In this document: positions 3,865 to 63,590 of the stretch, piece by piece | Layout: each line of letters starts with the position of its first letter | How positions within the stretch are numbered: the stretch's first letter is position 1 | Source of the DNA: an uncultured Selenomonadaceae bacterium | GTDB lineage: Bacteria > Bacillota > Negativicutes > Selenomonadales > Selenomonadaceae | DNA length: 64,000 nt | Direction of reading: 5' to 3' | Assembly: GCA_905234395.1 (NCBI GenBank) | Contig: CAJOHG010000013.1 | Location: 5,253-69,252, forward strand | Made by a program: the position numbers and the translations under genes | Notes under the pieces: model-generated | What the model was told of the DNA's origin: nothing | Seen by the model: only the letters and a program-made list of their open reading frames with translations | Databases searched by the model: none

Positions 3865-3993
3865 TTTACCGACCTCCTTTCATCGGCAAGATATTATCAG
3901 AAATTCTTCAGATAAACAAGACGCAAGCCTCAACTTCTACGCAAAAAAGCGCAACCCTTCAAAGAGTCACGCTTTTAATTTTACGGTCAATGA

Positions 3994-4695
3994 TTAGCGG
4001 GCAGAAAATTTTTTCCACGCCGCGACGAGTTCACGAGCCGCAAGCTTTGGATTGTCTGCACCGGCTACAGCTGACACGACGAAAAATCCTTGAACTTTTG
4101 TGGCGGCAAGATCGGGAATGTCCGCGAGTTTGACGCCGCCGCCGACAACTACGGGTATCGGGCTAATTTTGGCGAGTTCGGCAAATTCGTCAAAGTCGTG
4201 CGTGATAATTCGTCCGTCCGCAGTTTTGCCGCAATCGGGCTTCGTCAAAGTTTTATGCAACGGCCCGGCACCGAAATAATCAATCTGCGAAACGTCCGCG
4301 CCTTTAACGTAGTCGATAAGCTCTTCCGTCCGCGCACTAAGTCCGACGATTGAATCTTCGCCCAAAAATTTTCGGCACACGTCAACGGGAATGTCGCTCT
4401 GTCCGACGTGAATGCCGTCAACTTTAATGCCGACTTCTCGCGCCGCCAATACAACGTCAAGCCTGTCGTCGACAAGTAGCGCAACCGAATCACTTTTGCC
4501 GAGTTCACGAATCGCCCGCGCAGATTTTTCCAACGTCGCAATTAATTCACGGGCAGTGGCGACTTTCGAGCGAATTTGCACGCAAGTAAAGCCTTCACTG
4601 ACCGCCGCCGCAACGACTTCCTCAACGGGACGCGACGTGTTCTCTTGACCGATAACCAGATACGCGGAAATGTCCAAACGTTCACGAATGCTCAT
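3994..4695 (-). CDS. thiE: Thiamine-phosphate synthase
   Basis: 233 aa. Contains CVQIRSK, GIHVGQSD and VVVGGGV, a TMP-synthase TIM-barrel pattern. It sits in an operon with thiM. Confidence 0.9.
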   Translation of the reverse strand: MSIRERLDISAYLVIGQENTSRPVEEVVAAAVSEGFTCVQIRSKVATARELIATLEKSARAIRELGKSDSVALLVDDRLDVVLAAREVGIKVDGIHVGQSDIPVDVCRKFLGEDSIVGLSARTEELIDYVKGADVSQIDYFGAGPLHKTLTKPDCGKTADGRIITHDFDEFAELAKISPIPVVVGGGVKLADIPDLAATKVQGFFVVSAVAGADNPKLAARELVAAWKKFSAR

Positions 4696-7745: not shown

Positions 7746-9044
7746 TCAATTCATCTCCTGCCAAATAATTTTGTCGTCAATTGTAATGTCGCACCCGAAT
7801 TGGACTTCGATAATTTTCAGCGGCTCGTCGGCAATGACGGTGTGTTTGCTGCCAATCGGAAGTTGAATCACGTCACCTGCGCGGACGATTTTTTCCAAGC
7901 CGTCAACGATAATTCTGCCTGTGCCCGCAATAAAATTCCAAACCTCCGAGCGGCGTTCGTGACTGTGATATCTCATGCGGCTGCCGCGATTCAAAGTCAC
8001 TTTGACGGTCAAACTTTCGCTTTCCACGTCGATAATCTTGAAACTGCCCCACGATTTCTCCGCGAAACGAATTTGCTTGTCCAAACGTTCTACGAAAGGT
8101 TTAATGTAACTGGACGCAACTTTATCGGAAACAAGAATGCCTTCGGGCCCGGCGGCAACAACGGCGTCGCGCAAGCCCATGCAAATTATCGGCACGTCGG
8201 AATTGTTTATCACGTGAAGATTCGCGCAGGTCGCATCCGATTGCACTTGACCGATTGAATTCGACGCGAGGACTTCCGTCAGCGTGTTCCATGTGCCGAT
8301 GTCTTTCCATTCGTCCGAATATCGAACGACCGAAATTTTTTTCTCGTGCTCAACAACAGCATAGTCAAAGCTGATATTCGGAAGGTCAGCATAAATTTTT
8401 TTCAACGTGTCGTGCGCGGACGTGCCCAAAAGTTTTTCTGCTTTATCAAGAACGTAACCGAGCTTGAACGCAAAAATTCCGCCGTTCCACAGCGCACCGG
8501 CAGCGATAAATTTTTTCGCATCGGCAAGATTCGGCTTCTCTTTGAACGTGACAACGCGGCTAATATTATCGGCAGTTTGCGGGATTATGTAGCCGTATTT
8601 TTCAGATGGATAAGTCGGCGCAATTCCCATCAGTACAAGAGGCGTATCGGCAACCTGCGCGGCGAGCGTGGTGAATAACGCAAAAAAATTATCGTCAACG
8701 TAAGGATCGACGGGACAAACGATAATCGATTCGTTCAAGTCAATGCGTTTAACTTCGTGCAGATAAGCCGCCGCCAAAGCTATTGACGGAAAAGTATTTC
8801 GTCGACAAGGTTCGGGCGACAAGTCGAATTCATCGCCGAGAAATTTTTTTATGAGCGGCACTTGTTTGTCTGCCGTCGCGATCGTGATTGACGCGTTTGA
8901 ATTTGTGCGGCGAATTTGTTTGACGACTCGTTGCAACATGCATTCTCCGTTGTCGAAAATTTTCAGGAATTGTTTTGAGCGCACGTCGTTTGACAGTGGC
9001 CACAATCTTTGCCCGGAGCCGCCCGACAATAAAATTATCTGCAT
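7746..9044 (-). CDS. manC: Mannose-1-phosphate guanylyltransferase with C-terminal cupin (ManC-like)
   Basis: 432 aa. The N-terminus is LLSGGSGQRLWPLS. The C-terminal cupin contains RMRYHSHERRSEVW. Confidence 0.85.
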   Translation of the reverse strand: MQIILLSGGSGQRLWPLSNDVRSKQFLKIFDNGECMLQRVVKQIRRTNSNASITIATADKQVPLIKKFLGDEFDLSPEPCRRNTFPSIALAAAYLHEVKRIDLNESIIVCPVDPYVDDNFFALFTTLAAQVADTPLVLMGIAPTYPSEKYGYIIPQTADNISRVVTFKEKPNLADAKKFIAAGALWNGGIFAFKLGYVLDKAEKLLGTSAHDTLKKIYADLPNISFDYAVVEHEKKISVVRYSDEWKDIGTWNTLTEVLASNSIGQVQSDATCANLHVINNSDVPIICMGLRDAVVAAGPEGILVSDKVASSYIKPFVERLDKQIRFAEKSWGSFKIIDVESESLTVKVTLNRGSRMRYHSHERRSEVWNFIAGTGRIIVDGLEKIVRAGDVIQLPIGSKHTVIADEPLKIIEVQFGCDITIDDKIIWQEMN

Positions 9045-9063
9045 GAGTTCTCCTTTCGTAAGT

Positions 9064-9666
9064 TTATTTCGTTGCGACCACGTTTAAGCTCATCAATCGC
9101 CCGTGTTCAAAGTCCATGTGCGGAAGATAAGACCTGCTGTAGTCGTCATAATCCTGCGGTAAAAATTCCCGCCAATCATAGCGTTTAACGTCCGAGAATC
9201 CTGCATCCGTCAGCAAATCGGACAATCTCTTGAAGTCGTAGGTTTGATAGTGGAAGTCCAATTCGTATTTACTTCCGCCGTGAAGAAACGACTGCAACTT
9301 GTCAAGATTTTTTGATGACAAATATTCCTCAACGACAGCTTCAAAATCGGGCACGGCAATTCTCAAGATGCCTCCGGGTTTTAAAATCCTGTACCATTCG
9401 CAAAGAACAGAGATTTCATTAATCCCCCCGTCTACTTTGACGGAGAGCAGGTTAACAATACCGCCGTCCACAGAGGCATTTCGTATCCTTGAGCGCGGCA
9501 TATGCTCAATCAAATGACAAGCGTAAATTTCCGCGACAGAATTGTCCGCGAACATATCCAGCTTATCAAGTTTATTTGTGACGTAGTCGACGTGAAGAAA
9601 TTTTCGGGCGTCAAGATGTTTCCAGCCCGGCAAAAATTTTTCGCCGCAACCAATATGCAGTTTCAT
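9064..9666 (-). CDS. Class I SAM-dependent methyltransferase
   Basis: I prefer the internal start MKLHIGCGEKFLPGWKHLD (ATG 9666). It has an ATGA overlap with the upstream reading frame. LKPGGILRIAVPD is also present. Confidence 0.7.
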   Translation of the reverse strand: MKLHIGCGEKFLPGWKHLDARKFLHVDYVTNKLDKLDMFADNSVAEIYACHLIEHMPRSRIRNASVDGGIVNLLSVKVDGGINEISVLCEWYRILKPGGILRIAVPDFEAVVEEYLSSKNLDKLQSFLHGGSKYELDFHYQTYDFKRLSDLLTDAGFSDVKRYDWREFLPQDYDDYSRSYLPHMDFEHGRLMSLNVVATK

Positions 9667-36503: not shown

Positions 36504-36647
36504 AAAAAATGTTCTCCCTTCAAATTTTCATGTTCGCACGTCAATATACTGCAAAGCCGTTTGAAAGGCAAGCCGCCCGTAATTTTCGACAAGAAAAATT
36601 TTCCGAAGTTCAACGAATTGTCCGCTCAATCGCTTGTCAATTCCACG

Positions 36648-36676
36648 TTGTACAGTTGAAAATTCTCTGTTATAAT
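36648..36676 (+). promoter_or_regulatory. Unit 1 toxin promoter
   Basis: TTGTAC (36648-36653)-N17-TATAAT (36671-36676), with TGT immediately upstream of the -10. Confidence 0.6.
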
Positions 36677-36733
36677 CGCGCCGATGCTACGACTCTCGTC
36701 AGGCAGAACAACTTGCGAGAGGAGGTGAGCATT

Positions 36734-36844
36734 ATGTTCAGTATCGTGACGATGCTGGCAGTAGGTGTGGTCTCGACCGCCGTCGGAACCGTTATCGGAA
36801 CCGTCGTTGGCGTCTACATCTGCAACCGCTGGCTCAAGAAGTAG
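36734..36844 (+). CDS. Type I toxin-like peptide, unit 1 (36 aa)
   Basis: GAGAGGAGGTGA precedes the ATG. The peptide is MFSIVTMLAVGVVSTAVGTVIGTVVGVYICNRWLKK, one TM helix plus a basic tail. Confidence 0.7.
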   Translation: MFSIVTMLAVGVVSTAVGTVIGTVVGVYICNRWLKK

Positions 36845-36895
36845 CAGGCGTATCCACTCCTGCGCCATTTGACTGAGTAGCGTTCAGTTATGGCA

Positions 36896-36992
36896 AACGA
36901 AAACTCCCTGGACGATGTAGCGTTTCGTTTCAGGGAGTTTTTCGTTTGGTGAAACATCATGTTCAGTATCTCGTGTGAATTTCTTAAGTAGC
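36896..36992 (-). ncRNA. Predicted antisense antitoxin RNA, unit 1
   Basis: Runs from the minus-strand promoter to the shared hairpin. It is transcribed across 36948-36970 (GGTGAaacatcATGTTCAGTATC), a same-strand copy of the unit 1 SD/start region (GGTGAgcattATGTTCAGTATC, 36724-36745). The ends are approximate. Confidence 0.5.
36900..36946. terminator. Shared bidirectional terminator, unit 1
   Basis: AAAACTCCCTG...CAGGGAGTTTTT, with A-rich and T-rich flanks on both sides. Confidence 0.65.
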
Positions 36993-36998
36993 GTTGAC

Positions 36999-37063
36999 AA
37001 TTTATCACAGAATCAATCGCTTGTCAATTCCGCGTTGCCCGGCTGAAAATTTCCTGCTATAAT
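36999..37063. promoter_or_regulatory. Back-to-back promoters: antisense RNA of unit 1 (-) and toxin of unit 2 (+)
   Basis: Minus strand: TTGACA (37027-37022)-N17-TAAATT (37004-36999). Plus strand: TTGCCC (37035-37040)-N17-TATAAT (37058-37063). Confidence 0.6.
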
Positions 37064-37122
37064 CGCGCCAATGCCGCACCTCACAAGCGGTAAGTTCACG
37101 CTTGAGGAGGGAGGTGAGATTT

Positions 37123-37215
37123 ATGCTGGAGAGCCTTTCGCAATTCGGCTGGGACGTTCTGGCGATCGTGGTCGGAGGTATGATCCTCGACTACATTATC
37201 AACAGACGTCGCTAA
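37123..37215 (+). CDS. Type I toxin-like peptide, unit 2 (30 aa, different family)
   Basis: GAGGAGGGAGGTGA precedes the ATG. The peptide is MLESLSQFGWDVLAIVVGGMILDYIINRRR, which looks Fst/Ldr-like. Confidence 0.65.
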   Translation: MLESLSQFGWDVLAIVVGGMILDYIINRRR

Positions 37216-37277
37216 GCGGCAGCAAACTCTAACCAGTTGCCCAAGATAATCGCATCACCCTGCGGTTAGGCAAAACG

Positions 37278-37380
37278 AAGCCCCCGTGCAGTTCACCCTT
37301 CTGCGCGGGGGTTTTTCGTTCGGTGATACTCATGCCGGAACTGCGAGCCTTTCATTTCACAGTTGTTGCCTTTTGTCAAC
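37278..37380 (-). ncRNA. Predicted antisense antitoxin RNA, unit 2
   Basis: Transcribed across 37322-37353 (GGTGAtactcATGCcGGAactgcGAGCCTTTC). The unit 2 mRNA reads GGTGAgatttATGCtGGAGAGCCTTTC. The ends are approximate. Confidence 0.45.
37281..37318. terminator. Shared bidirectional terminator, unit 2
   Basis: CCCCCGTGCAG...CTGCGCGGGGGTTTTT. Confidence 0.65.
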
Positions 37381-37386
37381 GCTGTA

Positions 37387-37451
37387 AATTTATCACAGAA
37401 TCAATCGCTTGTCAATTCCACGTTGTACAGTTGAAAATTCTCTGTTATAAT
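37387..37451. promoter_or_regulatory. Back-to-back promoters: antisense RNA of unit 2 (-) and toxin of unit 3 (+)
   Basis: Minus strand: TTGACA (37415-37410)-N17-TAAATT (37392-37387). Plus strand: TTGTAC (37423-37428)-N17-TATAAT (37446-37451). Confidence 0.6.
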
Positions 37452-37510
37452 CGCGCCGATGCTACGACTCTCGGTCAGGCATGAATCCACGACGAGAGGA
37501 GGTGTCAATT

Positions 37511-37621
37511 ATGCTTAGCATTTGCACGATGCTGGCAGTAGGTGTGGTCTCGACCGCTATCGGTACCGCCATTGGAACCGTAATAGGCGTCTACATCTGC
37601 AACCGCTGGCTCAAGAAGTAG
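37511..37621 (+). CDS. Type I toxin-like peptide, unit 3 (36 aa)
   Basis: GAGAGGAGGTG precedes the ATG. The peptide is MLSICTMLAVGVVSTAIGTAIGTVIGVYICNRWLKK. Confidence 0.7.
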   Translation: MLSICTMLAVGVVSTAIGTAIGTVIGVYICNRWLKK

Positions 37622-37675
37622 CAGGCATATCGTCTCCTGCGCCCTCTAACTGAAGTCGCGTTTGGTTATGGCAAA

Positions 37676-37768
37676 CGAAAACTCCCTTGACGGCGTCGCG
37701 TTCCGTTTCAGGGAGTTTTTCGTTTGGTGTCAACATGCTTAGCATTTCATGTGTATTTCTTAAGTAGC
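37676..37768 (-). ncRNA. Predicted antisense antitoxin RNA, unit 3
   Basis: Transcribed across 37726-37747 (GGTGTCAAcATGCTTAGCATTT). The unit 3 mRNA reads GGTGTCAAttATGCTTAGCATTT. The ends are approximate. Confidence 0.5.
37677..37725. terminator. Shared bidirectional terminator, unit 3
   Basis: AAAACTCCCTTG...CAGGGAGTTTTT. Confidence 0.65.
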
Positions 37769-37774
37769 GTTGAC

Positions 37775-37839
37775 AATTTATCACAGAATCAATCGCTTGT
37801 CAATTCCACGTTGCCCGGCTGAAAATTTCCTGTTATAAT
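37775..37839. promoter_or_regulatory. Back-to-back promoters: antisense RNA of unit 3 (-) and toxin of unit 4 (+)
   Basis: Minus strand: TTGACA (37803-37798)-N17-TAAATT (37780-37775). Plus strand: TTGCCC (37811-37816)-N17-TATAAT (37834-37839). Confidence 0.6.
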
Positions 37840-37901
37840 CGCGCCGATGCTACGACTCCTCGAACACTTCAGCAGAACTTCTTCGAGAGGAGGTGAGCAC
37901 A

Positions 37902-38012
37902 ATGATCAGTATTCTGGTCACGCTGGCAGTGGGTGTGGTCTCGACCGCTATCGGTACCGCCATTGGAACCGTAATCGGCGTCTACATCTGCAATCGTCGA
38001 CAAAAGAAGTAG
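37902..38012 (+). CDS. Type I toxin-like peptide, unit 4 (36 aa)
   Basis: GAGAGGAGGTGA precedes the ATG. The peptide is MISILVTLAVGVVSTAIGTAIGTVIGVYICNRRQKK. The track ORF 37847..38044 is in another frame and is rejected. Confidence 0.7.
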   Translation: MISILVTLAVGVVSTAIGTAIGTVIGVYICNRRQKK

Positions 38013-38064
38013 CAGGCGTATCCACTCTTTCGCCCTCTAACTGAAGTCACGTTTGGTTATGGCA

Positions 38065-38163
38065 AACGAAAACTCCCTTGACGGCGTCACGTTCCGTTTC
38101 AGGGAGTTTTTCGTTTGTGAGCCAATGATCAGCATTCTCACGAATATCTTCTAAATTCTGGTC
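38065..38163 (-). ncRNA. Predicted antisense antitoxin RNA, unit 4
   Basis: Transcribed across 38118-38138 (TGAGCcAATGATCAGcATTCT). The unit 4 mRNA reads TGAGCacAATGATCAGtATTCT. The ends are approximate. Confidence 0.5.
38066..38115. terminator. Shared bidirectional terminator, unit 4
   Basis: AAAACTCCCTTG...CAGGGAGTTTTT. Confidence 0.65.
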
Positions 38164-38169
38164 GCGGCT

Positions 38170-38198
38170 AATCTATCACACAATCAATCGCTTGTCAA
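38170..38198 (-). promoter_or_regulatory. Antisense RNA promoter of unit 4; its -35 lies inside the last codons of the R-M gene
   Basis: TTGACA (38198-38193, codons L-T of ...VELTSD*)-N17-TAGATT (38175-38170). Confidence 0.55.
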
Positions 38199-40990
38199 TT
38201 CCACGTAGCGATTCATCAGCTCGCCGACAATTTTTGCCTCGTCGTCCAAAATGTTTTCAAAGCCGTAAGCCAAAGCAACTGCCTTGTCATTTTCGCGATG
38301 AGCTTTTCTCAAATCGGCGGGCATTGTCAATTCGTCGTACAAATCGGCAAGCGTAGAGTCGGGATAATTTTTTCGCGCGTCCAAAATTTTTTGCGCAGTC
38401 GTTTCAATCGCTCGACGCCGGTTATCTGTCGGCTCGCACCACGGAAAATTATTATAAACCACGTTGCTTGAATAGCGATAACTCGTTCCAAGGTAGCCGC
38501 AGACCGTTCGCATCCAAGCCATATGAATTGACGACGTTAAAATTCCAAAGTGATACAGCGTCGCGTTCGGGATAATCAAATTTGCATTGCTCGCGATAAT
38601 ATCAGGTGATACAAATCCCATTGGAATATATTTTCGTCCGCCCGATGAATGACACGGAATTAAAATGTATTCAGTTGTCGGTTGTGATATGAAGAAAAAT
38701 TTATGCGGCGTCTCTGCAGTCTTTCTAGTTGCAGCTGAAGTGCTAGCCTCGCGCATTTTTCTGACGGCATCAACTCGCCGATAAAGTTCTTTGCTTTTGC
38801 GAAGTTCCTTAGGCGTCGCGTTGACAAGCCATAAGCAATAACGTTCGATGTTGTTGATGAATTCGTTGCCGCCGACGTAACGGAAGATAAATTTTTCAAG
38901 TGCAGGCTCGCGTTGAAGAATCTCTTTGCGTTCGGCAGGCGACAGAATCAAATTTCCGCCGTCACTCGGTTTGTTGCCTAAAATAATTCGCGGCACGAAG
39001 TCTTGAAGATGTTTTGCACGGCTCTCGATAAAAATTGTCGGCGCGTCGCACAGGTAAGGATTGATATTTTTCGCGCTGATGATTTCGTCGCCGTCAAAGA
39101 TTTTCTTTTCGACGGGCAAAGACTTATCGGCAATGCAGATAACGACGCAATGAACGCTTGCCTTGTCGAGAGATTCGCTGTCCCATTTGAAAGTTCGGCG
39201 TGCGAAAATGATTTGCATGTTGTATTCGTCGAAAACCTTTTTCCAAAGCGGAGCGAGCTGTTCGCCCTGCGTGATAGAGTTCGTGCTTACAAAGGCGGCT
39301 TTGATGTTGGTGCCGGTCATGAATTTTGCGGCGAGATGATACCACGCGCCAACGTAGTCGACGCTGTTAGAGAGTTTGACTTTGCCGAAAATCTTGACGG
39401 CTTCGGCTTTCTGCGCGGCGTTCATCATGCTTGCACCGACGAAAGGCGGATTTCCGATGATGTAATTCGGTTGCGGACAAATTTTTTGCCAGTCGATTTT
39501 CAAAGCGTTGCCTTCGTGAATGTTTGAATAACTTTTCAGCGGCAGAAAGTCTAAGTCGCGGTGAATAATCTCTCGCGTGTCCTGCATCATTTGCAATTCA
39601 GCGATCCACAATGCAGTTTGCGCGACGGCTACAGCAAAGTCGTTGATTTCGATGCCGTAAAATTGTCCGATTGAAACTTTTATCGGGTTGACGAGTTCGC
39701 CGAGCTGAATTTGACTGCCGAGCAATTCCTTGAGCAATTCGTTTTCAAGTCGACGCAACGACAGATAACTTTCCGTCAAAAAATTCCCGGAGCCGCACGC
39801 AGGATCGAAAATTTTCAACGACGCAAGCTTATCTTGGAACGCGAGCAAATTTTTCTTGCGGTTACGTGACGGAATTTTGGCGATGTCAAATTCGGCTTTA
39901 AGTTCGTCCAAAAATAACGGGTCGATGACTTTGTGGATGTTTTCAATCGCCGTGTAGTGCATGCCGCCGGCGCGTCGAGTTTCGGGATTCAACGTCGATT
40001 CAAACACTGCGCCGAATATCGTCGGACTGATTCCGCTCCAGTTGAAACCGCTTGACGCTTCTTCAAACAACAGCTCGCGAATTTTGGGCGTGAAGTTCGG
40101 AATTTCGATTGAGCCGCTGAAAAGTCCGCCGTTGACGTAAGGAAATTTTTTCAACGTGTCGTCAAGATACGGGTCGCGCTCATCAATCGGAGTGTTCAGC
40201 ACGTCAAACAGATGAATCAAATCCCAACGAATATTTCTTGCCAGTCGCGGAAAATTTTGTGCTTGCCGAAAATGCCCGATGACTCGGCGTAAAGACAAAA
40301 GACCAATCGGACGCAGAGCTTGTTGAGACTGGCTTGACTTTCCGCAGAATTCGGATTGACGTATTGCGCGAGCAAAGCGTTGTAAAGTTTGCCGACGATT
40401 TCGCCCGCCTTCAAGCTCAATTCCAACTCAATGCGAATCTTGTTGCGTTCCTTGTCAATCAGAAAATCCAGCGCGTGAAATTTTTCGGGCAACTCTTCGA
40501 GCAAAATTTTAATCGGCGGCTTCAAAGTTTCCATGTCGTAAATCAGAAACTCTTTGAAATTGCACGTGATGATTTTTTTCGGGTGCATTGAGACCGGCAA
40601 GCCGATAACATACCGCCGCGCCTGTTCGTAAGGTGTGAGCTTCGTTCCGTCCGATTGCGTGATTTCCTTTTCCAAATCGACGCCGCAAGCTTTCTGCTCA
40701 ATCAAAACGTTTGTGTCGGGAAAATAGCCGTCGATAAAACTTTTGTGCGCGAGCTGAACTGGCACTTCAAAGTTTATAAAATTTTCGGGCTTGTCGATGT
40801 CGAAAACGTCACGAATCAGCGTGAGCCAAAATTTTTGATAATCAGCACGTTCATTGGCGACAACGTTTGAGCGCGGCTTATCGGTTGAAATTTTTTGAAA
40901 CTCCGTCGCGTCCGCTGTTCCGTCGCTTTTAAAGCGACCACGTTCGCCGTTGACTTCGCGCCACTGCTTGACAAAATTTTTTACGTTCAA
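38184..40990 (-). pseudogene. MmeI-family type IIL/IIG restriction-modification fusion enzyme, split by one frameshift
   Basis: Track ORFs 40217..40990 and 38184..40298 overlap by 82 nt in different frames. The first carries the nuclease FIDGYFPDTNVLIEQK and the helical LVFCLYAESSGIF. The second carries LFDVLNTP, FPYVNGGLF, FDPACGSGNFL, GNPPFVG, the TRD and HMAWMRTVCG...YNNFPW. Together they total about 940 aa, similar to MmeI. The start is TTG after GGAAGGAGG. Confidence 0.85.
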
Positions 40991-41124
40991 GCTAAAACCT
41001 CCTTCCGCACCGATTATATCACATTTAAACGTTTCGTCGATTCAAAGATTTTATTCCGACAAACAACTTGCAAGTGAGATGATTAAATGCTAAAATCAGC
41101 CAAAATTTATTGGGAGGAATTTCT

Positions 41125-41529
41125 ATGTTGGAAGGATTTGTGGAGATACCGATTTTGCAAGGGAGTTCGTTCCTTTCTGTGACAGACAACGGCTTGAATT
41201 TCAACAAAAACGTTGTGAAACACATGCGACGGGCGGAGAGCATTAAAATCTTTTGCAATTCGTCCAAGAAACAACTTGCCATTCAAAAATGCGACAAGAA
41301 CGCCGAAAATTCCATTCCGTTTTACCGTGACGAGAAAAATTTGACAAACGGCGTAAGATTCAACAATCGCGAAGTTCAACAGATGATTGCAACGTTGATG
41401 GATTGGAATTTAAGCGAATACAATTACAGAGCAGACGGCTTTCTTGCTGACGACGGTGAAACTATGATATTCAATTTAAATTGTGTCAGGAAATTCTCTA
41501 AAAAGAACAAGACTGTAACAAATACTTAA
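41125..41529 (+). CDS. Hypothetical protein, first gene of the AT-rich cassette (possibly a small DNA-binding fold)
   Basis: 134 aa from the ATG after GGGAGGA: MLEGFVEIPILQGSSFLSVTDNGLNFNKNVVKHM.... An upstream TTGCAA-N17-TAAAAT lies at about 41067-41095. I recognise no confident family. Confidence 0.55.
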   Translation: MLEGFVEIPILQGSSFLSVTDNGLNFNKNVVKHMRRAESIKIFCNSSKKQLAIQKCDKNAENSIPFYRDEKNLTNGVRFNNREVQQMIATLMDWNLSEYNYRADGFLADDGETMIFNLNCVRKFSKKNKTVTNT

Positions 41530-41753
41530 CAAAAGACGATTTGACGTTTAAGCTTAAGCTCGTAAAGGAGTGATGCGATTGCTTGAGTGTAAATTCGTCT
41601 CGACAAAGTAAAAAAATTACGCCGACAAAGTGGATTGTCAACGCTAATTGCAAAATATATAAGTTCAAAAACATTTTAACACATTTATAAAAAATAGCAA
41701 TGGCTTTTGGCAATTCCTCTTTTGGCGTGGAAATTTCAAAGGAGGAATTAATC

Positions 41754-42473
41754 ATGGCTAACGAAAAGAAAATTAGTGCTGATTGCAAAGACGTTTGGAA
41801 CGCATTCATGGTGAGAAGTGCAGATTTTCCGCAGAATGGTATTGGCATTCCGTTTTGCCCGACGACCGCGAAAGAAATTCCGTGCGAACTCATCTCCTAC
41901 ACCGAAGCGAGAGCTACTTACAATCGGCAGATGAAGCGCGACAACAAAAATTTTTTCGTGAACTCTTTTGTTCACTTCTATCAACATGATCGCAAATTCG
42001 ACGGTAAACGTTGCGGGATATGGTTTCAACCTCGGAGAGCCGCAGAAATTTTTCGGCACTTCGCGGGCATCATTACTCCCGACTTCTCGACCAATCTCGA
42101 TTTCCCGTTCCCGTGGAAAATTTTCAACACCTATCGAATGCGGGCGTTCGGCTATTGGTACGGCACACTCGGCGGCGCGGTCATTAACAATGTTCGTTGG
42201 GGCGAAGAGGATACTTTCAGCTGGTGCTTTGAGGGTATAGCGCACAACAGTATCGTTTCAATCGGAACGGTTGCGAGCGGACTTCGTGATTTTGAAAATC
42301 GTAAACTTTTTGAGACCGGCTTTTTCAAGATGATTGAAGTGTTGCGCCCGCATACAATAATTGTTTACGGCTCGGACAAATATTCATGCATTGAAAGCGT
42401 GCGTCAGCAAATCAAAATTGTACAATTCGACAGCGAACGCGCCCTTGCCTTTGCGGAGAAAAATCATGTCTAA
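41754..42473 (+). CDS. DUF4417-family protein
   Basis: The start MANEKK follows AAAGGAGGA. FVHFYQHDRKFD...GIITPDFSTNLDFPFPWKIFNTYRMRAFGYWY...VINNVRWGEEDTFSWCFEGIAHNSIVSIG matches the DUF4417 pattern as I recall it (HFF.DD.FE...PDFS...N.YR...VIP...W...S...CF.G). Confidence 0.65.
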   Translation: MANEKKISADCKDVWNAFMVRSADFPQNGIGIPFCPTTAKEIPCELISYTEARATYNRQMKRDNKNFFVNSFVHFYQHDRKFDGKRCGIWFQPRRAAEIFRHFAGIITPDFSTNLDFPFPWKIFNTYRMRAFGYWYGTLGGAVINNVRWGEEDTFSWCFEGIAHNSIVSIGTVASGLRDFENRKLFETGFFKMIEVLRPHTIIVYGSDKYSCIESVRQQIKIVQFDSERALAFAEKNHV

Positions 42474-42903
42474 GCCGGACAGCGGACATTTTCATGGCGC
42501 GAACGGCAAAGGCGGCGGCTCAACTTCTCCGCTCTTCAACAACGGACATGTGACTTATGAAAGCATTGAGGCGCACCGCGAAGAATTCATGGGCAAAACT
42601 GTCGAACAAATCGCTGAACTGCTCAGTCAAAACGGTTATAAGTTTAATATTCGCCCGTCAAAAAATCGTGAGAAAACCGGCTCGACAGCTCAAATAATCG
42701 AAATAACCAATGCATCAAAAGATCGCAATATTAAGCAAGTCCAAGTTTCGCCTGACGGGAGCAGTCGACACGGCAATGTTCCTTATGTAAAAATCAGCAC
42801 GTCAAACGAGAGTAAAATTAAAGTTATCGACGGAACACCAGAAAAATATATACCTGGCGATAACGAAAAAGCGCGTTTAATTTTCTGGAGGGATAGCGAA
42901 TGA
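42466..42903 (+). CDS. Hypothetical 145-aa protein (orphan toxin-domain-like)
   Basis: The ATG overlaps the DUF4417 stop (ATGTCTAA). The peptide is MSKPDSGHFHGANGKGGG...GKTVEQIAELLSQNGYKF...SSRHGNVPYVKISTSNESKIKV. It has no signal peptide or trafficking domain. Confidence 0.5.
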   Translation: MSKPDSGHFHGANGKGGGSTSPLFNNGHVTYESIEAHREEFMGKTVEQIAELLSQNGYKFNIRPSKNREKTGSTAQIIEITNASKDRNIKQVQVSPDGSSRHGNVPYVKISTSNESKIKVIDGTPEKYIPGDNEKARLIFWRDSE

Positions 42904-43367
42904 TTGATTTAACCACGCCGATTATTCCTTACGTTGGCACGGGAATTTTTAAGCTTGATTCTTCTTATAATGAAATCAAATCTCTTCTTGCAGAGCACAA
43001 CATTTCGTATAAAGAGGAAATTTGGGAAGCAACTGACGTTGATCCGCCGTGGCATATCATCGGTATATCTAGAGTCGGCGAAGAATACGATGCATTAAGC
43101 CTTACTTTTGCCAAGAACAGACTCTTCAGGATTTGTCTTTACGAGGATTTCTACGGGAAATTGCCGAATGGGATTCATACTAACATGACGATTGAAGAAG
43201 CTTTGATTATTGATAAAAACTTGTACTATAATGATGACAATGATGAACTTTATGAATCACCTGACGGCTATTGGCTCGATTATCACAGAGGTACAAGAAA
43301 AATTTTGACAATCATTATTTTCATTCCGGCACTTGAGAGCGACGATTTCTTCGATTACAACTGGTAA
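42900..43367 (+). CDS. Hypothetical acidic 155-aa protein (immunity-protein-like)
   Basis: ATGA start/stop overlap with the previous ORF. It is Asp/Glu/Tyr-rich (LYYNDDNDELYESPDGYWLDY...ESDDFFDYNW). Confidence 0.5.
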   Translation: MIDLTTPIIPYVGTGIFKLDSSYNEIKSLLAEHNISYKEEIWEATDVDPPWHIIGISRVGEEYDALSLTFAKNRLFRICLYEDFYGKLPNGIHTNMTIEEALIIDKNLYYNDDNDELYESPDGYWLDYHRGTRKILTIIIFIPALESDDFFDYNW

Positions 43368-43374
43368 GCGACTT

Positions 43375-43419
43375 TACAAAAAAATTTTTCCCCGCCAAAT
43401 TTCTGACGGGGATTTTTTT
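43375..43419. terminator. Bidirectional terminator between the cassette and the MmeI remnant
   Basis: A-run, then CCCCG...CGGGG, then a T-run. Confidence 0.65.
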
Positions 43420-44589
43420 ATTTGCTCGCGTGTTGTTCGTAGAGTTTGAGCAACTTTACGGCTAAAGTCGGCTCGTCGTCCAAAAATTTTTCCCAACCGT
43501 AAGCTTTTGCCACTGCCAAATCGTTTTCGCGATGAGCTTTTCTCAATTCATACGGCATGGAAACTTCATCATACAAAGCGGCAAGCGTCGACTTCGGATA
43601 ATTTTTTCGTGCATCCAAAATATTCTGCGCGAACTGCTCGACAGCAAGGCGTTGCGTTTCTGTCGGCTCAATCCACACAAAATTATTGTACACCACGTCT
43701 TTTGAGTAGAGATAATCACTTTTCAAACGACCGCCGACCGTTCTAAGCCACGCCATGTGTATTGAACTCGTCAAAATTTTAAAATGATACAATGTAAAGT
43801 TGGGAATTTCAATCTTTCCGCTGAAAAGTCCGCCGTTGACGTATGGAAATTTTTTCAACGTGTCGTCAAGATACGGGTCGCGCTCATCAATCGGAGTGTT
43901 CAGCACGTCAAACAGATGAATCAAATCCCAACGAATATTTCTTGTGCTTGCCGAAAAAGATGCCCGAAGACTCGGCGTAAAGACAAAAGACCAATCGGAC
44001 GCAGAGCTTGTTGAGACTGGCTTGACTTTCCGCAGAATTCGGATTGACGTATTGGGCGAGCAAGGCGTTGTAAAGTTTGCCGACGATTTCGCCTGCTTTA
44101 AGCGAAAGTTCAACTTCAATGCGGAGCTTGTTGCGTTCCTTGTCAATCAGAAAATCCAGCGCGTGAAATTTTTCCGGGCAACTCTTCGAGCAAAATTTTC
44201 GTCGGTGCCGCGAGCGTTTCCATATCGTAAATCAGAAACTCTTTGAAATTGCACGTGACGATTTTTTTCGGGTGCATGGAGACCGGCAAGCCGATAACAT
44301 ATCGTCGCGCCTGTTCATAAGGTGTGAGCTTCGAGCCGTCGGACTGCGTGATTTCCTTTTCCAAATCGACACCGCAAGCTTTCTGCTCAATCAAAACGTT
44401 TGTGTCGGGAAAATAGCCGTCGATAAAACTTTTGTGCGCGAGCTGAACGGGCACTTCAAAGTTTATAAAATTTTCGGGCTTGTCGATGTCGAACACGTCG
44501 CGAATCAACGTGAGCCAAAATTTTTGATAGTTTGCGCGTTCGCCGCTGACGTGTGCCCATTGCTTGACAAAATTTTTTATGTCGCTCAT
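43418..44589 (-). pseudogene. Degenerate second copy of the MmeI-family gene (nuclease domain plus extreme C-terminus; methyltransferase and TRD deleted)
   Basis: The N-terminal ~150 codons are near-identical to copy 1 but carry a 1-nt insertion (TTTTTCCGGGC vs TTTTTCGGGC) and a 19-nt deletion relative to copy 1. IEIPNFT is joined directly to LYHFKILTSSIHMAWLRTVGG at about 43792/43793. Confidence 0.85.
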
Positions 44590-59679: not shown

Positions 59680-60915
59680 TTAACGAACCATGCGGTACAT
59701 CAAATCTTCTTGCGCCTTCATGCATTTCATCAGCTCAAATCGTTCCAAAATCGTTTCGCGAGCCGCCGCGCCGAGTTTCCGTGCACGTTCGGGATCGTCG
59801 AGTTGCTCTTCAATCTTTCGCGCAATGTGATAAGGTGAGCGGAACTCTGCAAGCAAACCGTTGACGCCGTCTTCCATGACTTCTTGCACAGGCGGAGTTT
59901 TTGAGCCGACCATCGGACAAGCAAAACTCATTGCCTCAAGACACGACCAACTTAAAACGAATGGACGCGTCAAATAAACGTGACAGCTTGACGCACGCAA
60001 AATTTTCTGATAGTCGCCGCGATTTCTCAAGCCGACGAAATGCACACGGTCTGTTGGGTAGCCGCCCTTCTTCTCTTCTTCCTTAAGATAAGTCGTGTCC
60101 TTGAGTTGCGCGCCGTAACAGATTCTGTCCTTGCCGACAACAACAACATGAGTATTCGGGCGACGAGCCAACACGTGGCGAATCGCGTCCATGAAATACG
60201 GGAAGCCGCGATAAATTTCAAAGCCGCGAGCAACGTAAGTGATAATTTCTGTGCCTTCGGGCAGGTTAAGTTGAACGTCGTCAAGCACAAGTCCGGGACG
60301 TTTGCCGCTGGGATCGGGCGAACAAAATCTCGTGTCGATGCCCTCGTGAATGATGTTGAGCTTAGGCTTGTACTCTTCCGGGAATTGCGAATACTGCCAC
60401 TTAGTCGGACAAATTCCGGCGTCACACAGCTGCAAATTCATCAAGTGATGAGCGTTGCGCGTGCGAATGGAAATGCGGTTGCCGACTTGCGGAATTTCAT
60501 CGGGCCACCAATAACAATCGCTGTCCTCAACGAGATAATACCACTCGAAATAGCCGATAATCGGAACGTTCGGATACATGTCCTTACAATAGAGCGTCGA
60601 TCCCCAACCTGTGTGACCGATAATCACGTCGGGCTTGACGTTCTTTTCTTTGGCGAGCCAATCCATTGCGCGAAGAACAGATTGCCCTTCAACGACAGCC
60701 TCTGCCGCCGGACGCAACGGGCCGCAAGTTTTAATCCACTCGTCGGATTTTTCATTCGGCTTTGGATAAAGTGCAAGCGTCACGCCTTTGAGTTGCGCGT
60801 TGATAGAATTTTCCTTCGACAGGAAGTAAACGTTGTTTTCGGGATTGCTTGCCAGATACGGCGCGATATTGAGATACTGCGCGGGAAACGACGGGTGCAG
60901 AATAAAAATATTCAC
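59680..60915 (-). CDS. GT4-family (GT1-fold) glycosyltransferase
   Basis: 411 aa. Contains SWSCLEAMSFACPMVGSKTPPVQEVMEDGVNGLL. The GTG start overlaps the res stop (GTGA). Confidence 0.8.
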   Translation of the reverse strand: MNIFILHPSFPAQYLNIAPYLASNPENNVYFLSKENSINAQLKGVTLALYPKPNEKSDEWIKTCGPLRPAAEAVVEGQSVLRAMDWLAKEKNVKPDVIIGHTGWGSTLYCKDMYPNVPIIGYFEWYYLVEDSDCYWWPDEIPQVGNRISIRTRNAHHLMNLQLCDAGICPTKWQYSQFPEEYKPKLNIIHEGIDTRFCSPDPSGKRPGLVLDDVQLNLPEGTEIITYVARGFEIYRGFPYFMDAIRHVLARRPNTHVVVVGKDRICYGAQLKDTTYLKEEEKKGGYPTDRVHFVGLRNRGDYQKILRASSCHVYLTRPFVLSWSCLEAMSFACPMVGSKTPPVQEVMEDGVNGLLAEFRSPYHIARKIEEQLDDPERARKLGAAARETILERFELMKCMKAQEDLMYRMVR

Positions 60916-63590
60916 GATAGATTCTCTCCTTTTGCAAACTCATTAAAAATATTGTCCAACTCATTGTTACTTGCGGCGCGAATCACTCTGTCACGAATCG
61001 CGCTCTTTGACATATCCAGCCGCGTGAAAATTTTTTGTCCGAGTATATTTTTTTCGCGAATCAGTTGCAACCTTCCGACTTTGGAATTTTCTTCGGCGTA
61101 AACGGCGAGAGCTTTTGCCTTGCCGATATTGTCTCTGAAGTTTGAATCATGCGGCTCCAAAATATCAACGACGTAAGCATTTTCATTGCGGCGCACGATT
61201 AAAAAATCCGGGTAAAAAAGTTTTGTATTGCCGTGCTCGTCTTGATAGGGAATGCTCAATGACCACGGCGCGCGTTGACAATTTCTTAACCAACAGACAA
61301 AATCCTTGCAACGTTGCTCTTCATGCAGGATACTTTCTTCCCAACCGTTGAGCTTAATCGTTGCCGTGCCCGTCGCCGCATCAACGAACAAATGATCCGA
61401 ATAACTTTTGCCGTCAACATCATGCGTCATTGAAATTGTCATCGGCAGTTCAAAATTGTGCGTGCTGACTTCGTCGCCATTTGAAACAATTTTATCATAT
61501 TCATTTTTCGTTGCGGACGGCAAGCCGATAATTTCGCGTCGGAATTTGTCGCACAGCGCATGAAATTTTTCTTTGGCGAAACGTTCAAGCTTGATAAGAT
61601 TGTCGGCGTCCTTCACAAAAAGAATCACGTCAATCTTGCCGTCGTCAAGGTTATCGGGCGGAAAAAAATTCGTCAAATATCTGTTGGCAACGCCCGCACT
61701 TTTCAACGTCTTCTCTGCCTGTCGAAATTGCCGCTCAATGTCAGTGTCGGTCGTCACGAAAAGATTTTGACTCACAGCTTGATTAACTCCTTCACCGAAC
61801 GCGTCAAAAATCTGCGCGGACAATTTGAACTCTCTGGCTTGACGATTGAGCGCGTCATATTTGCCCGCAGACTTCAGCTCGTCAATGTACTGTCGAATGA
61901 ACGCGGCAACGTCATCAAGCGCGGTATCGAATGCCTCGCGGAATAAATTGCTCCACATGAGAAAATGCGCCATGTTTAAAAAAGATTGCAAAGCGTCGTT
62001 GATTTGCGCACGATTTATTTTGTAAGTCGACAATCCCAACGCGTTGACGGCTTTGACAATTTCCTCGCGGTCGAAAGAAATTTGCGCGTTAAAATTTTTT
62101 GCGACATCCTGAACGCCTTCCGAAGCCAACGTAAAATTTTCAAGCGGCGTCGAATTGACGGCAGAAAAATTTTCAACGGGCGTCCGCGCAGATATTTTTG
62201 CAACGCCTTTGACTGTCAACGGAACGATTTTTTTCGCACCGAGACTTTCGCCGACAATCTCCGCAGGAATTTCTCCGTTCTCCGATTTGTGAAGCTTGTC
62301 GACAATTTCTTGAACGGTGCTCTCGTCGAAATGCGGCAAATACAATCGGACTTCGTTCAAAGTGTCGTCCTCATCAATGCGGCGTTGCAACGGCGTGCGA
62401 ATCATTCTGCCCAAAAGTTGAGCGATATACGTTGCGTCGACTGCGCGGCGGAAAGACATCATCGTTTCGGCTTTCGGACAGTCCCAGCCCGTTGAAAGAT
62501 TTTCTTTAAAGAACACCACGCGAATATTGTCCCTGCCCGAAATTTTTGACGGCTCAACATGATTGACGCGCAGACCGTTTATCGTCAAGTCAGCTGTCTC
62601 TCCGAACGTGTGAACGACTTCGCCAAGTTTAAATTCAATGCCCGTGCGCTGTGAAATTTTCTTCAAGCAGTCGTCCAAATCGGTATCGGAAATTTTTTTC
62701 GCGGAACTGTTCTCGACTTGCACGACAAAAATCGGATTGAAACTCTTATCGCCGAGATATTGCCGCCAATGTTCGCATTTGCTCTTCCAATCGTCAGCCG
62801 CCGCCTCAAGAATCGCCATATCCTTTGCAACGGAAATGCTCGTTCGCTCGTCGGGATAAATGACGACAATTCGCTCCTTGAGCAAGCCGGACGCTTTGAC
62901 TTCGGCATTGGTCACGATAACGCGTTGAATCGTCGCAGAACTTTTCGCAACCAAATTGTTGAATCGTTCAATCGTCGCGCTCATGCCAATCACTACGGGC
63001 ACGGGCTTAAAGTTGTCGTCAACGCTGCCCTTGATGAATTTTTGCATGATGGTCGTCGCACGTCCTGCCGCAACGCCTTTCATGCCGCGATGTGCCTCGT
63101 CAATGATGAAATAAATTTTGTCAGTCTTGGCTTTGATTGTGTTGCTCAACGTCTCCCAAATCGTGTACTGTCGAAAATCGGAGTGGCGCGTCAAATTGCT
63201 GCCCTTACCGAGTTTTTGCGTGTTCAGAAAATAAATCTTGCCGTCGTCCAAAGTTTGCGCGTCAAAAGTTTCATCTTCAATCATCACAAGTTGCGAATGA
63301 TTTATACCGTCGGCATTGAAATAAAATTTGTCAAGCGACTGCCGATTGAGTTCGGGCGAATCACTCAACCAAACAAAAATCGCGTCGGGCTGTGCAAGAT
63401 AATTTTCGTCGCCGCAATAAACTCTTTCAACCAATGACGCCAACATTATCGTTTTGCCCGCGCCCGTCGGTGCTGTGAATGAAATTGCCTGCGGAATTTT
63501 TCTGCGCAAATACAATTCCTGCGCGTCGTACAGATAATCCCGCAATTCCCGCACGGCGTTCATTTGGAAAGGGAGCAGTTCAATTTTCAT
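60912..63590 (-). CDS. res: Type III restriction enzyme Res-like helicase/endonuclease subunit
   Basis: 892 aa. Contains FTAPTGAGKT (motif I), IIDEAHRG (DEAH) and SATIE. The C-terminal FYPDFLIVRRNENAYVVDILEP looks like a possible nuclease core. Confidence 0.8.
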   Translation of the reverse strand: MKIELLPFQMNAVRELRDYLYDAQELYLRRKIPQAISFTAPTGAGKTIMLASLVERVYCGDENYLAQPDAIFVWLSDSPELNRQSLDKFYFNADGINHSQLVMIEDETFDAQTLDDGKIYFLNTQKLGKGSNLTRHSDFRQYTIWETLSNTIKAKTDKIYFIIDEAHRGMKGVAAGRATTIMQKFIKGSVDDNFKPVPVVIGMSATIERFNNLVAKSSATIQRVIVTNAEVKASGLLKERIVVIYPDERTSISVAKDMAILEAAADDWKSKCEHWRQYLGDKSFNPIFVVQVENSSAKKISDTDLDDCLKKISQRTGIEFKLGEVVHTFGETADLTINGLRVNHVEPSKISGRDNIRVVFFKENLSTGWDCPKAETMMSFRRAVDATYIAQLLGRMIRTPLQRRIDEDDTLNEVRLYLPHFDESTVQEIVDKLHKSENGEIPAEIVGESLGAKKIVPLTVKGVAKISARTPVENFSAVNSTPLENFTLASEGVQDVAKNFNAQISFDREEIVKAVNALGLSTYKINRAQINDALQSFLNMAHFLMWSNLFREAFDTALDDVAAFIRQYIDELKSAGKYDALNRQAREFKLSAQIFDAFGEGVNQAVSQNLFVTTDTDIERQFRQAEKTLKSAGVANRYLTNFFPPDNLDDGKIDVILFVKDADNLIKLERFAKEKFHALCDKFRREIIGLPSATKNEYDKIVSNGDEVSTHNFELPMTISMTHDVDGKSYSDHLFVDAATGTATIKLNGWEESILHEEQRCKDFVCWLRNCQRAPWSLSIPYQDEHGNTKLFYPDFLIVRRNENAYVVDILEPHDSNFRDNIGKAKALAVYAEENSKVGRLQLIREKNILGQKIFTRLDMSKSAIRDRVIRAASNNELDNIFNEFAKGENLS

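Follow-up and report, generated by a model that had tools for sequence, protein, structure and literature searches.

In a stretch of 64,000 nucleotides (nt) of contig CAJOHG010000013.1 (assembly GCA_905234395.1), from an uncultured Selenomonadaceae bacterium and referred to below as the window, four co-directional + strand open reading frames (ORFs), g1 to g4, are flanked on both sides by − strand genes of the MmeI family. The genes g2, g3 and g4 encode a DUF4417 protein, a predicted toxin and a predicted immunity protein, respectively. On balance we consider it probable that they constitute a DUF4417-linked toxin–immunity cassette, the toxin of which is tagged with a short leader, and that the cassette is related to a phage system located in packaging and head modules. 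This reading is carried by the order and coupling of the genes, the sharing of the g3 domain with large toxins, the position of the immunity gene, the occurrence of a leader on otherwise unrelated proteins, the phage context of DUF4417 and purifying selection.

The conserved trio and its predicted toxin–immunity pair

The g2 gene (41754–42473, +) starts at the ATG at 41754 behind AAAGGAGG, and the resulting protein of 239 amino acids (aa) equals the called homologues in length. It overlaps g3 (42466–42903, +; 145 aa) by 8 nt, with ATGTCTAA at 42466, and g3 overlaps g4 (42900–43367, +; 155 aa) by 4 nt, with ATGA at 42900. Both overlaps had been pointed out in the initial annotation of this DNA and both are present in the sequence; the ORF list likewise bears out the placing of four + strand ORFs here, opposite to the flanking restriction–modification (R-M) genes.

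One genome per species was scanned for the g3 family, and the ORFs of the loci were then searched with hidden Markov models. The family occurs in 59 species-representative genomes, from Selenomonadaceae, Oscillospiraceae, Lachnospiraceae, Erysipelotrichaceae, Acholeplasmatales and a few Bacteroidales; the bacteria that carry the trio are gut and rumen species. DUF4417 is encoded directly upstream of g3 in about 40 of the 59 loci, in the same gene order, and g4 lies directly downstream of g3 in nearly all of them. Where the start of g3 could be placed (27 loci), the g2 stop codon is no more than 20 nt away in 22, the genes overlapping or abutting, and in the other five the spacing varies between an overlap of 65 nt and a gap of 310 nt. 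The closest relatives of g3 and g4 are in metagenome-assembled genomes of Selenomonadaceae, under adjacent locus tags, and both families are unnamed. The initial annotation described a four-gene cassette and looked to co-localisation elsewhere for its test. The genes g2, g3 and g4 do recur together, strikingly so, whereas homologues of g1 are found in a few Selenomonadaceae loci only and g1 falls outside the conserved unit. The functional unit conserved across these genomes thus appears to be a three-gene operon, DUF4417–g3–g4.

Measured against relatives diverged by 17–21%, the ratio of nonsynonymous to synonymous substitution rates (dN/dS) is 0.22–0.25 for g2, 0.15–0.16 for g3 and 0.07–0.15 for g4; all three genes are under purifying selection. 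All are intact in the window, and three other contigs carry them in identical or near-identical form.

About 25 disordered, Gly/Ser-rich residues (MSKPDSGHFHGANGKGGG...) form a leader at the start of the g3 protein and are followed by a globular domain with the core motif RHGNVPYVKIS. In the AlphaFold2 model (predicted local distance difference test, pLDDT, 85; predicted TM-score, pTM, 0.77) residues 5–18 fall below 50. Invariant polar residues in the family alignment, among them Glu39, Lys44, His102, Lys109, Glu134 and Arg142, suggest that g3 may be an enzyme. Readings of the conserved residues as an H-Y-E ADP-ribosyltransferase or a BECR RNase were considered and dropped, as fold support is absent. 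Neither g3 nor g4 has a match in Pfam, NCBIfam, PHROGs, PADLOC or the sequences of the PDB, the last searched both with the single sequences and with family profiles.

A profile of 40 g3 sequences gave 309 matches when run against 1.8 billion representative proteins. In many of these, proteins of 200–1113 aa, profile positions of about 24–145 correspond to the extreme C-terminus. The N-terminal parts that precede the domain include, by Pfam, PT-TG, Fil_haemagg_2, Cu_amine_oxidN1 with PG_binding_1, Transglut_core and PBECR3; two further g3-domain proteins carry RHS-core and HINT sequence signatures, which were read by eye. The g3 domain is therefore a C-terminal module on varied N-terminal parts, the arrangement by which polymorphic toxins are recognised. 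The protein in the window has no N-terminal secretion, trafficking or repeat domain according to Pfam and only its disordered leader of about 25 aa.

The g4 protein is acidic, as first described (isoelectric point, pI, 4.37; 28 Asp and Glu vs 12 Lys and Arg), and a Pfam scan of 40 members of its family returned scattered chance matches only. In all three loci examined a g4 homologue sits directly downstream of a large g3-domain toxin; searched with the g4 profile (hmmsearch), the gene after the toxin is 143 aa long in locus L080 (E 2.5e-29), 145 aa in L081 (E 8.5e-25) and a 42-aa fragment at the contig end in L079 (E 4.8e-7). An immunity gene immediately downstream of the toxin, a second mark of polymorphic toxin systems, is thus present in these three loci as in nearly all stand-alone ones. 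In about 10 loci, moreover, a full-length g4 remains where g3 is truncated or missing; away from contig ends no locus showed the opposite. Since the g3 domain ends large toxins and a g4 homologue is the next gene, the prediction that g3 is an uncatalogued polymorphic-toxin domain and g4 its immunity protein is well supported. This agrees with the earlier likening of g3 to an orphan toxin C-terminal domain, now seen at the end of RHS, HINT, PT-TG, haemagglutinin-repeat and PBECR3 proteins, and of g4 to a cognate immunity protein, now seen behind the large toxins in three loci of three. A search of PADLOC-DB 2.0 for defence systems gave no significant match for g1 to g4, and none at all for g3 or g4; nor does any of the four genes match a type II toxin–antitoxin (TA) family in Pfam, NCBIfam or PADLOC.

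DUF4417 and its leader-bearing neighbours

The initial assignment of g2 to DUF4417 is secure: Pfam PF14386 matches with 124.4 bits (E 4.7e-36) against a gathering cut-off of 28.9, over model positions 29–182 of 183, and PHROG matches are to phrog_8680 and phrog_940. The AlphaFold2 model (pLDDT 91, pTM 0.88) has seven or eight alternating β/α units. An Asp after strand 2 and Pro-Asp-x-Ser after strand 3 are invariant across very divergent members, which is consistent with either an enzyme or a conserved binding face. Foldseek comparison with BFVD retrieved only unnamed viral DUF4417 proteins, and sequence and g2-profile searches of PDB sequences returned nothing significant. Weak PADLOC matches of g1 to Cas11a and of g2 to HEC-01B (E 0.004 and 0.024) were treated as chance. 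The initial annotation could name no described system containing DUF4417; in keeping with this, PADLOC gave no significant match and the literature yielded neither such a system nor a functional account of the family. DUF4417 has been reported as enriched among phage fusion partners of the ParB-CTPase fold (bioRxiv 10.1101/2025.10.10.680097) and otherwise appears in the literature in the annotations of two phage genomes.

Relatives of DUF4417 with 30–38% identity were located in 537 stretches of IMG/VR, from which 80 loci were kept. An ORF starting MGGRG[GS] abuts the DUF4417 gene in 67 of these 80 loci, mostly with a 4-nt or 11-nt overlap, and the 67 loci represent 10 of 15 DUF4417 clusters at 90% identity. 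Among 2532 ORFs of at least 80 aa the motif is borne by 76, and 70 of those lie within 700 bp of DUF4417. The literature searched does not contain this leader motif in a DUF4417 context. Past the leader the viral proteins belong to 15 unrelated families of 83–284 aa; matches above threshold are to ADPrib_exo_Tox (28.8 bits) and to Gln_amidase/Tox-PL1, a papain-fold glutamine deamidase (59 bits), and one further leader protein has a HEIGH motif. A scan of g2–g4 and of ten phage leader proteins showed no MuF domain (SPP1 gp7 / Phage_Mu_F).

Wherever the viral contigs are annotated, the pair is next to head or packaging genes. Four viral loci carry, in order, DUF4417, one to three leader proteins, terS, terL and, where the sequence continues, the portal gene. 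In another viral lineage the DUF4417 pair is located between head–tail adaptor and tail-completion genes, that is, in the head–neck module. The window cassette itself is not beside terS, terL or portal genes. In one phage stretch (L091, 5160–5426) a holin-like gene (phrog_1129) is also found in the head–neck module, two genes upstream of DUF4417, an odd spot for a lysis gene. The idea of a GH25-type endolysin, suggested by this holin-like neighbour in one phage lineage, found no structural support and was rejected.

DUF4417 is paired with a leader protein in all five cultured phages sampled. In Mycobacterium phage EvilGenius, DUF4417 is gp2 (annotated “nuclease”) and overlaps gp3, an ADP-ribosyltransferase starting MGKRGGSGGGG. 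Gordonia phage Waits (L166, about 1100–1985) pairs DUF4417 gp1 with a VIP2-like ADP-ribosyltransferase; the annotated start of the latter (MFDSFF...) is probably wrong, since no stop interrupts the frame between it and an upstream MGGRGSGGGG, from where the gene would overlap the end of DUF4417. The partner of gp107 in Mycobacterium phage CicholasNage is gp108, starting MGRGRHSG, and in Streptococcus phage Javan88 gene 0032 is paired with 0033, which starts MSKKGKPYG and by eye resembles the 124-aa toxin of bacterial locus L017 described below. In Streptococcus phage MM1 (L164) DUF4417 is ORF28; its partner ORF29 (3473–4219) has the sequence GGGRGANF... and a JAB-like motif (HNHP...SxxD), and packaging genes follow. 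More broadly, tblastn located DUF4417 in 490 phage-collection records, of which 384 are Mycobacterium phages, and in the Mycobacterium-phage records inspected it lies at the left genome end. It is also present in pneumococcal and other streptococcal prophages.

The bacterial loci show a similar exchange of proteins behind DUF4417. Locus L029 has a single DUF4417 gene with two toxin–immunity pairs behind it. The first toxin (8870–9430) has 186 aa, starts MSKSDSGLFQGTLGS and contains the motif HSHPH...SxSD; the second is a g3 homologue starting MSKSDSGLFVGTAGA. The two have the common start MSKSDSGLF(Q/V)GT(L/A)G and are unrelated past the leader. A JAB/MPN-like motif is common to MM1 ORF29 (H-x-H-P...S-x-x-D) and the first L029 toxin (H-x-H-P...S-x-S-D), neither of which matches a Pfam family. 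Elsewhere DUF4417 precedes an Ntox50 protein (L030; 44.6 bits; N-terminus MGSGSSS), a protein with a weak PBECR1 match (L027; E 2.4e-4, 22 bits, below the 27.6-bit cut-off; MGRYKDSG), a conserved 124-aa protein (L017–L019 and L163; MGSRGSF) and a 139-aa protein (L074; MGSTYKGG). Each of these alternative small proteins after a divergent DUF4417 has a small partner gene behind it. In L017–L019 (8001–8864 and 9057–14125), on a Selenomonadaceae island near meaB, behind the new pair come an orphan g4 and a gene whose product matches DUF6258 weakly, below threshold; a metagenome scan with the L017 DUF4417 as query gave only two loci. Nearby in the same three loci, two CofH-like radical-SAM genes enclose a GmrSD type IV restriction gene. 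This exchange of predicted toxins after DUF4417 is the recombination pattern of polymorphic toxins, with a constant part that here shrinks to a leader of 15–25 residues and a separate DUF4417 protein.

One g3 homologue (P0106; L006, 8001–8447) has a leader, MGAGRYGGFGHTKGSMFIPLDLQFFATK, that contains LDLQFFA. This string resembles the cleavage motif of the Prp protease in ribosomal protein L27 and in the capsid and scaffold proteins of phage 80alpha, a likeness which hints that the leader may be a cleavable propeptide.

The island and its MmeI-family genes

The cassette is located on an 8-kb island between secDF and meaB, with housekeeping genes around it. No integrase or transfer genes were found on the island, and an Rfam search across it gave no match above threshold. 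The first of the four ORFs, g1 (41125–41529, +; 134 aa), has GGGAGGAA 6 nt upstream and encodes a basic protein (pI 9.0) that matches nothing in Pfam, NCBIfam, PHROG or PDB sequences. Upstream of DUF4417, homologues of g1 are confined to Selenomonadaceae, where they occur in four contexts, the loci being L001/L023, L017–19 and L022. At about 23 other loci the place of g1 is taken by two proteins, in some cases fused to each other: an XRE-type helix–turn–helix (HTH) protein and one of the Peptidase_M78 (ImmA/IrrE) family; an AAA_21 ATPase or a Fic protein is seen there more rarely. A regulatory role may be supposed for g1. The ABC transporters seen near some cassettes are generic ATPases that had been grouped by single linkage, not a linked exporter.

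A promoter-like site, TTGCAA-N17-TAAAAT, was located by a consensus scan upstream of g1 (41068–41096, +). The site is present as first annotated and has a TG before the −10 element; it matches the consensus at only 9 of 12 positions, and the AT-rich stretch around it contains 11 such sites against 5.1 ± 2.2 in shuffled sequence. We regard it as a weak promoter candidate. Between g4 and the convergent MmeI remnant a hairpin (43389–43412) has a 10-bp stem with six G–C pairs, an A-run upstream and a T-run downstream, so that termination would be possible in both directions, as had been proposed. The description of the whole cassette as AT-rich holds in patches: G+C content (GC) is low in g1 (0.39), in the g1–g2 spacer (41530–41753; 0.34) and in g4 (0.378), and is close to that of the window (0.479) in g2 (0.464) and g3 (0.443). 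The MmeI genes have a GC of 0.46.

The opposite-strand neighbours are indeed R-M genes, of the MmeI family and type IIG according to Pfam and PADLOC (REase_MTase_IIG). To speak of two R-M gene copies nevertheless says too much: the left copy is frameshifted and the right copy lacks the methyltransferase and most of the TRD, and neither retains the single-polypeptide architecture of MmeI_N, helicase-spacer, methyltransferase, TRD and C domains. Copy A (38184–40990, −) has all MmeI domains and is split by a frameshifting 10-bp deletion at about 40240 (GCGCCTTCGA missing), which was placed against the intact 938/939-aa genes of two 99%-identical contigs, L014 and L015. The products would be a 257-aa N-terminal endonuclease fragment and a 704-aa methyltransferase–TRD fragment; the deletion may have inactivated the gene at the level of the strain or may reflect on/off variation. 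Copy B (43418–44589, −) is a remnant in which the N-terminal and spacer parts are joined to the TRD tail and C domain. Its identity to copy A is 90% in the N-terminal/spacer part and 73% in the TRD tail with the C domain. Intact versions of the family are present in L014, L015, L009 and L012.

Positions 41564–43756 of the window, which take in the whole trio, its terminator and the 3′ end of the right-hand MmeI gene, are colinear with L009 at 79% identity, and L025 has the same colinear unit of trio and MmeI gene. The L009 unit is part of a 29-kb element that also encodes a primase, a resolvase, a NikA-like protein and a relaxase. Because of this colinearity with another Selenomonadaceae element, we conclude that the trio and the right-hand MmeI gene have been inherited together, copy B being the ancestral convergent neighbour of the trio. 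An insertion between two R-M genes, as described earlier, is thus not the most fitting account of the cassette. The R-M setting is likewise no defining signature of the trio: MmeI genes accompany it only in Selenomonadaceae and more than 50 other loci are without one.

Just downstream of the 3′ end of copy A are four tandem repeats of about 388 bp (36605–38206). Each has a promoter-like TTGTCA...TATAAT site and three contain a hydrophobic ORF of about 36 aa, e.g. MLSICTMLAVGVVSTAIGTAIGTVIGVYICNRWLKK; there is no Rfam match, and the repeats have the appearance of arrayed type I toxin-like genes. The g1–g2 spacer contains a hairpin (41619–41644) and the 24-nt sequence ATTGTCAACGCTAATTGCAAAATA (41634–41657), which is an inverted repeat, at 83%, of sites at 36979–37001 and 37754–37777 within the 388-bp repeats and may be a shared operator. 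Two further regions of the window were noted. At its start (1–3042, −) a third MmeI-family gene extends past the boundary (TRD at 1–714), followed by a nucleotidyltransferase fused to an NTase substrate-binding domain (707–1423) and an Hsp70-like ATPase (1423–3042); this looks like a second defence-type cluster. At 60912–63590 (−) an 892-aa helicase of ResIII / SWI2-SNF2 type lies beside glycosyltransferase and O-antigen ligase genes.

Proposed function and competing explanations

In the working model, g3 would be a leader-tagged toxin with a compact, enzymatic-looking domain of the kind carried by large secreted or injected polymorphic toxins, and g4 would bind and neutralise it inside the carrier cell. 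DUF4417 would be the constant, translationally coupled partner of a set of swappable leader-tagged proteins, which it may recognise, process or load via the leader. As temperate phages have the same arrangement, the effector would most likely travel out of the cell inside or alongside a particle, or with transferred DNA, the immunity protein being retained for self-protection. In bacteria the module would usually be under an XRE/ImmA-IrrE stress switch, for which g1 would substitute in Selenomonadaceae; here it is located on the secDF–meaB island with two decayed MmeI genes.

A more specific version is put forward tentatively, and we would not be surprised if it proved wrong. DUF4417 may be the loader, tether or processing enzyme for an unrecognised class of effectors with a Gly-rich leader (MGGRG[GS]..., MSK.DSG.F.GT.G). 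It would serve phages of Firmicutes and Actinobacteria in delivering ADP-ribosyltransferases, deamidases, nucleases and further effectors to cells along with their DNA; the cassettes of bacteria and mobile elements would be an antibacterial version furnished with immunity, possibly hitch-hiking on resident phage particles or DNA transfer.

Several observations weigh against a leader-tagged cassette of phage kinship. DUF4417 is often truncated where g3 and g4 are intact, as in L001, L003, L006 and L033, thus the pair can persist without it. Homologues of g3 were found in neither IMG/VR viral contigs nor PLSDB plasmids, and no recurring capsid, terminase or secretion genes were found near the bacterial cassettes, which leaves the cassette without a delivery vehicle. 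Foldseek comparison with the PDB gave no structural neighbour for the g3 model (best E 0.19, TM below 0.3) and no significant one for DUF4417 (weak matches, at E 0.035 or above, to TIM-barrel enzymes and a single TIR domain). The leader in the window (MSKPDSG...) and the phage MGGRG leader are alike in position and composition only; homology through intermediates such as MGAGRYGGFGHTKG and MGRYKDSG is at best plausible. Toxicity, g3–g4 binding, an interaction of DUF4417 with the leader and the route of delivery are all inferred.

Some of these points would suit an intracellular TA or abortive-infection module, the defence or addiction reading of the initial annotation, in which g4 restrains g3 until stress or phage frees it, DUF4417 is a sensor or second effector and the whole stabilises or defends the island. 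This account deserves to be taken seriously, though we think it rather doubtful. The operon is tightly coupled; XRE with ImmA/IrrE, AAA_21 (AbiEii-like) or Fic genes are upstream at many loci; the unit has been found on a mobilisable element that encodes a relaxase, a primase and a resolvase, next to R-M and PIN genes; the lack of secretion or virion genes near bacterial cassettes and the survival of g3–g4 after decay of DUF4417 fit it, and polymorphic-toxin domains are also known in TA systems (PMC3482391). It leaves unexplained, however, why unrelated toxins share a conserved leader, why two toxin–immunity pairs can follow a single DUF4417 gene and why DUF4417 and its leader partner occur in the packaging and head modules of phages, where the cargo includes host-modifying proteins such as ADP-ribosyltransferases. 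PADLOC, Pfam and NCBIfam return no TA or defence family, and immunity genes that outlive their toxins are typical of inter-cellular toxin systems. Given this orphan-immunity pattern and the overlap of the cargo with MuF-fused phage toxins, delivery to other cells appears the more economical logic.

That the cassette is a decaying prophage or mobile-element remnant without current function, g4 being needed as long as g3 remains, seems improbable. Decay would lead one to expect the defects of both MmeI neighbours, the truncation of DUF4417 or g3 at many related loci and the absence of integrase and transfer genes from the island; yet g2–g4 are intact and recur with little or no change in three other contigs, their start/stop overlaps and terminator are preserved, and dN/dS values of 0.07–0.25 against the 17–21% diverged relatives mean purifying selection. 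Least credible of all, and very unlikely in our view, is a functional accessory of the MmeI-type enzyme, for instance a controller or a back-up post-segregational killer. Co-inheritance of the trio with a convergent MmeI gene in L009–L016 and L025 (another arrangement is seen in L027 and a weak fragment in L055) and a g4–MmeI junction kept at 78–79% DNA identity would accord with it. The distribution of the trio largely refutes the idea, since the trio is found without any MmeI gene in the more than 50 loci noted above, which span several phyla; phage DUF4417 moreover sits in packaging modules, and in this window all of the trio is intact next to two broken MmeI genes.

The reading as a DUF4417-linked, leader-tagged toxin–immunity cassette can be set beside four known arrangements. 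In phage T4 the internal proteins and Alt carry an N-terminal capsid-targeting sequence and use the prohead scaffold and the gp21 protease. By analogy of logic only, a short N-terminal peptide there marks unrelated proteins, including an ADP-ribosyltransferase, for delivery with DNA, much as we propose for the leader; there is no sequence similarity, and T4 relies on gp21 and not on a DUF4417-type partner. Type II TA modules with XRE and COG2856 (ImmA-IrrE) resemble the bacterial cassettes in having a small toxin and a neutraliser, in the XRE HTH and M78 peptidase genes upstream at about 23 loci and in their association with mobile elements. They differ in that here the toxin gene precedes the neutraliser, an additional DUF4417 gene is present, polymorphic toxins stand behind a leader and no TA family matches; in this window, furthermore, g1 stands in place of the XRE/ImmA pair.

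The other two parallels are with polymorphic toxin systems (Zhang et al. 2012, PMC3482391) and with the MuF-fused toxins of temperate phages (Jamet et al. 2017, PMC5576092). As in the former, the g3 domain is a C-terminal module on RHS, HINT, PT-TG and haemagglutinin-repeat parts with the immunity gene next, orphan immunity genes and tandem cassettes occur, and one alternative toxin, Ntox50, is already catalogued. In contrast to them, the constant part here is a leader of about 15–25 residues and not a trafficking, repeat or processing domain, the DUF4417 partner is separate and coupled, the g3 and g4 families are outside Pfam and no secretion system is nearby. MuF-fused toxins comprise nucleases including Ntox50, ADP-ribosyltransferases, metallopeptidase-like proteins and Tox-PL1 (PMC5576092), and their repertoire overlaps with the cargo described above; they too are located in the phage DNA-packaging module and have related cassettes in bacterial chromosomes. 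The DUF4417-linked effectors, unlike these, have no MuF domain and are unfused, with a short leader and DUF4417 in its stead. Their block lies upstream of the terminase genes and not after the portal, and their packaging into virions is a prediction.

DUF4417 is present in hundreds of sequenced phages, and its pairing with a coupled, leader-tagged and hypervariable effector is the first functional lead for the family, one that could be tested in tractable systems such as the mycobacteriophages and phage MM1. The g3 and g4 families would add a new toxin domain and a new immunity protein, common among the anaerobes of rumen and gut and found in neither Pfam nor the PDB, and the combination of a short leader with a DUF4417 partner would be a new architectural variant of the polymorphic toxin system. 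The leader may also be of practical use in finding unannotated effectors of phages and mobile elements and in correcting gene starts, as in phage Waits. If delivery proves true, temperate phages would have a second route, besides MuF fusions, by which to carry polymorphic toxins.

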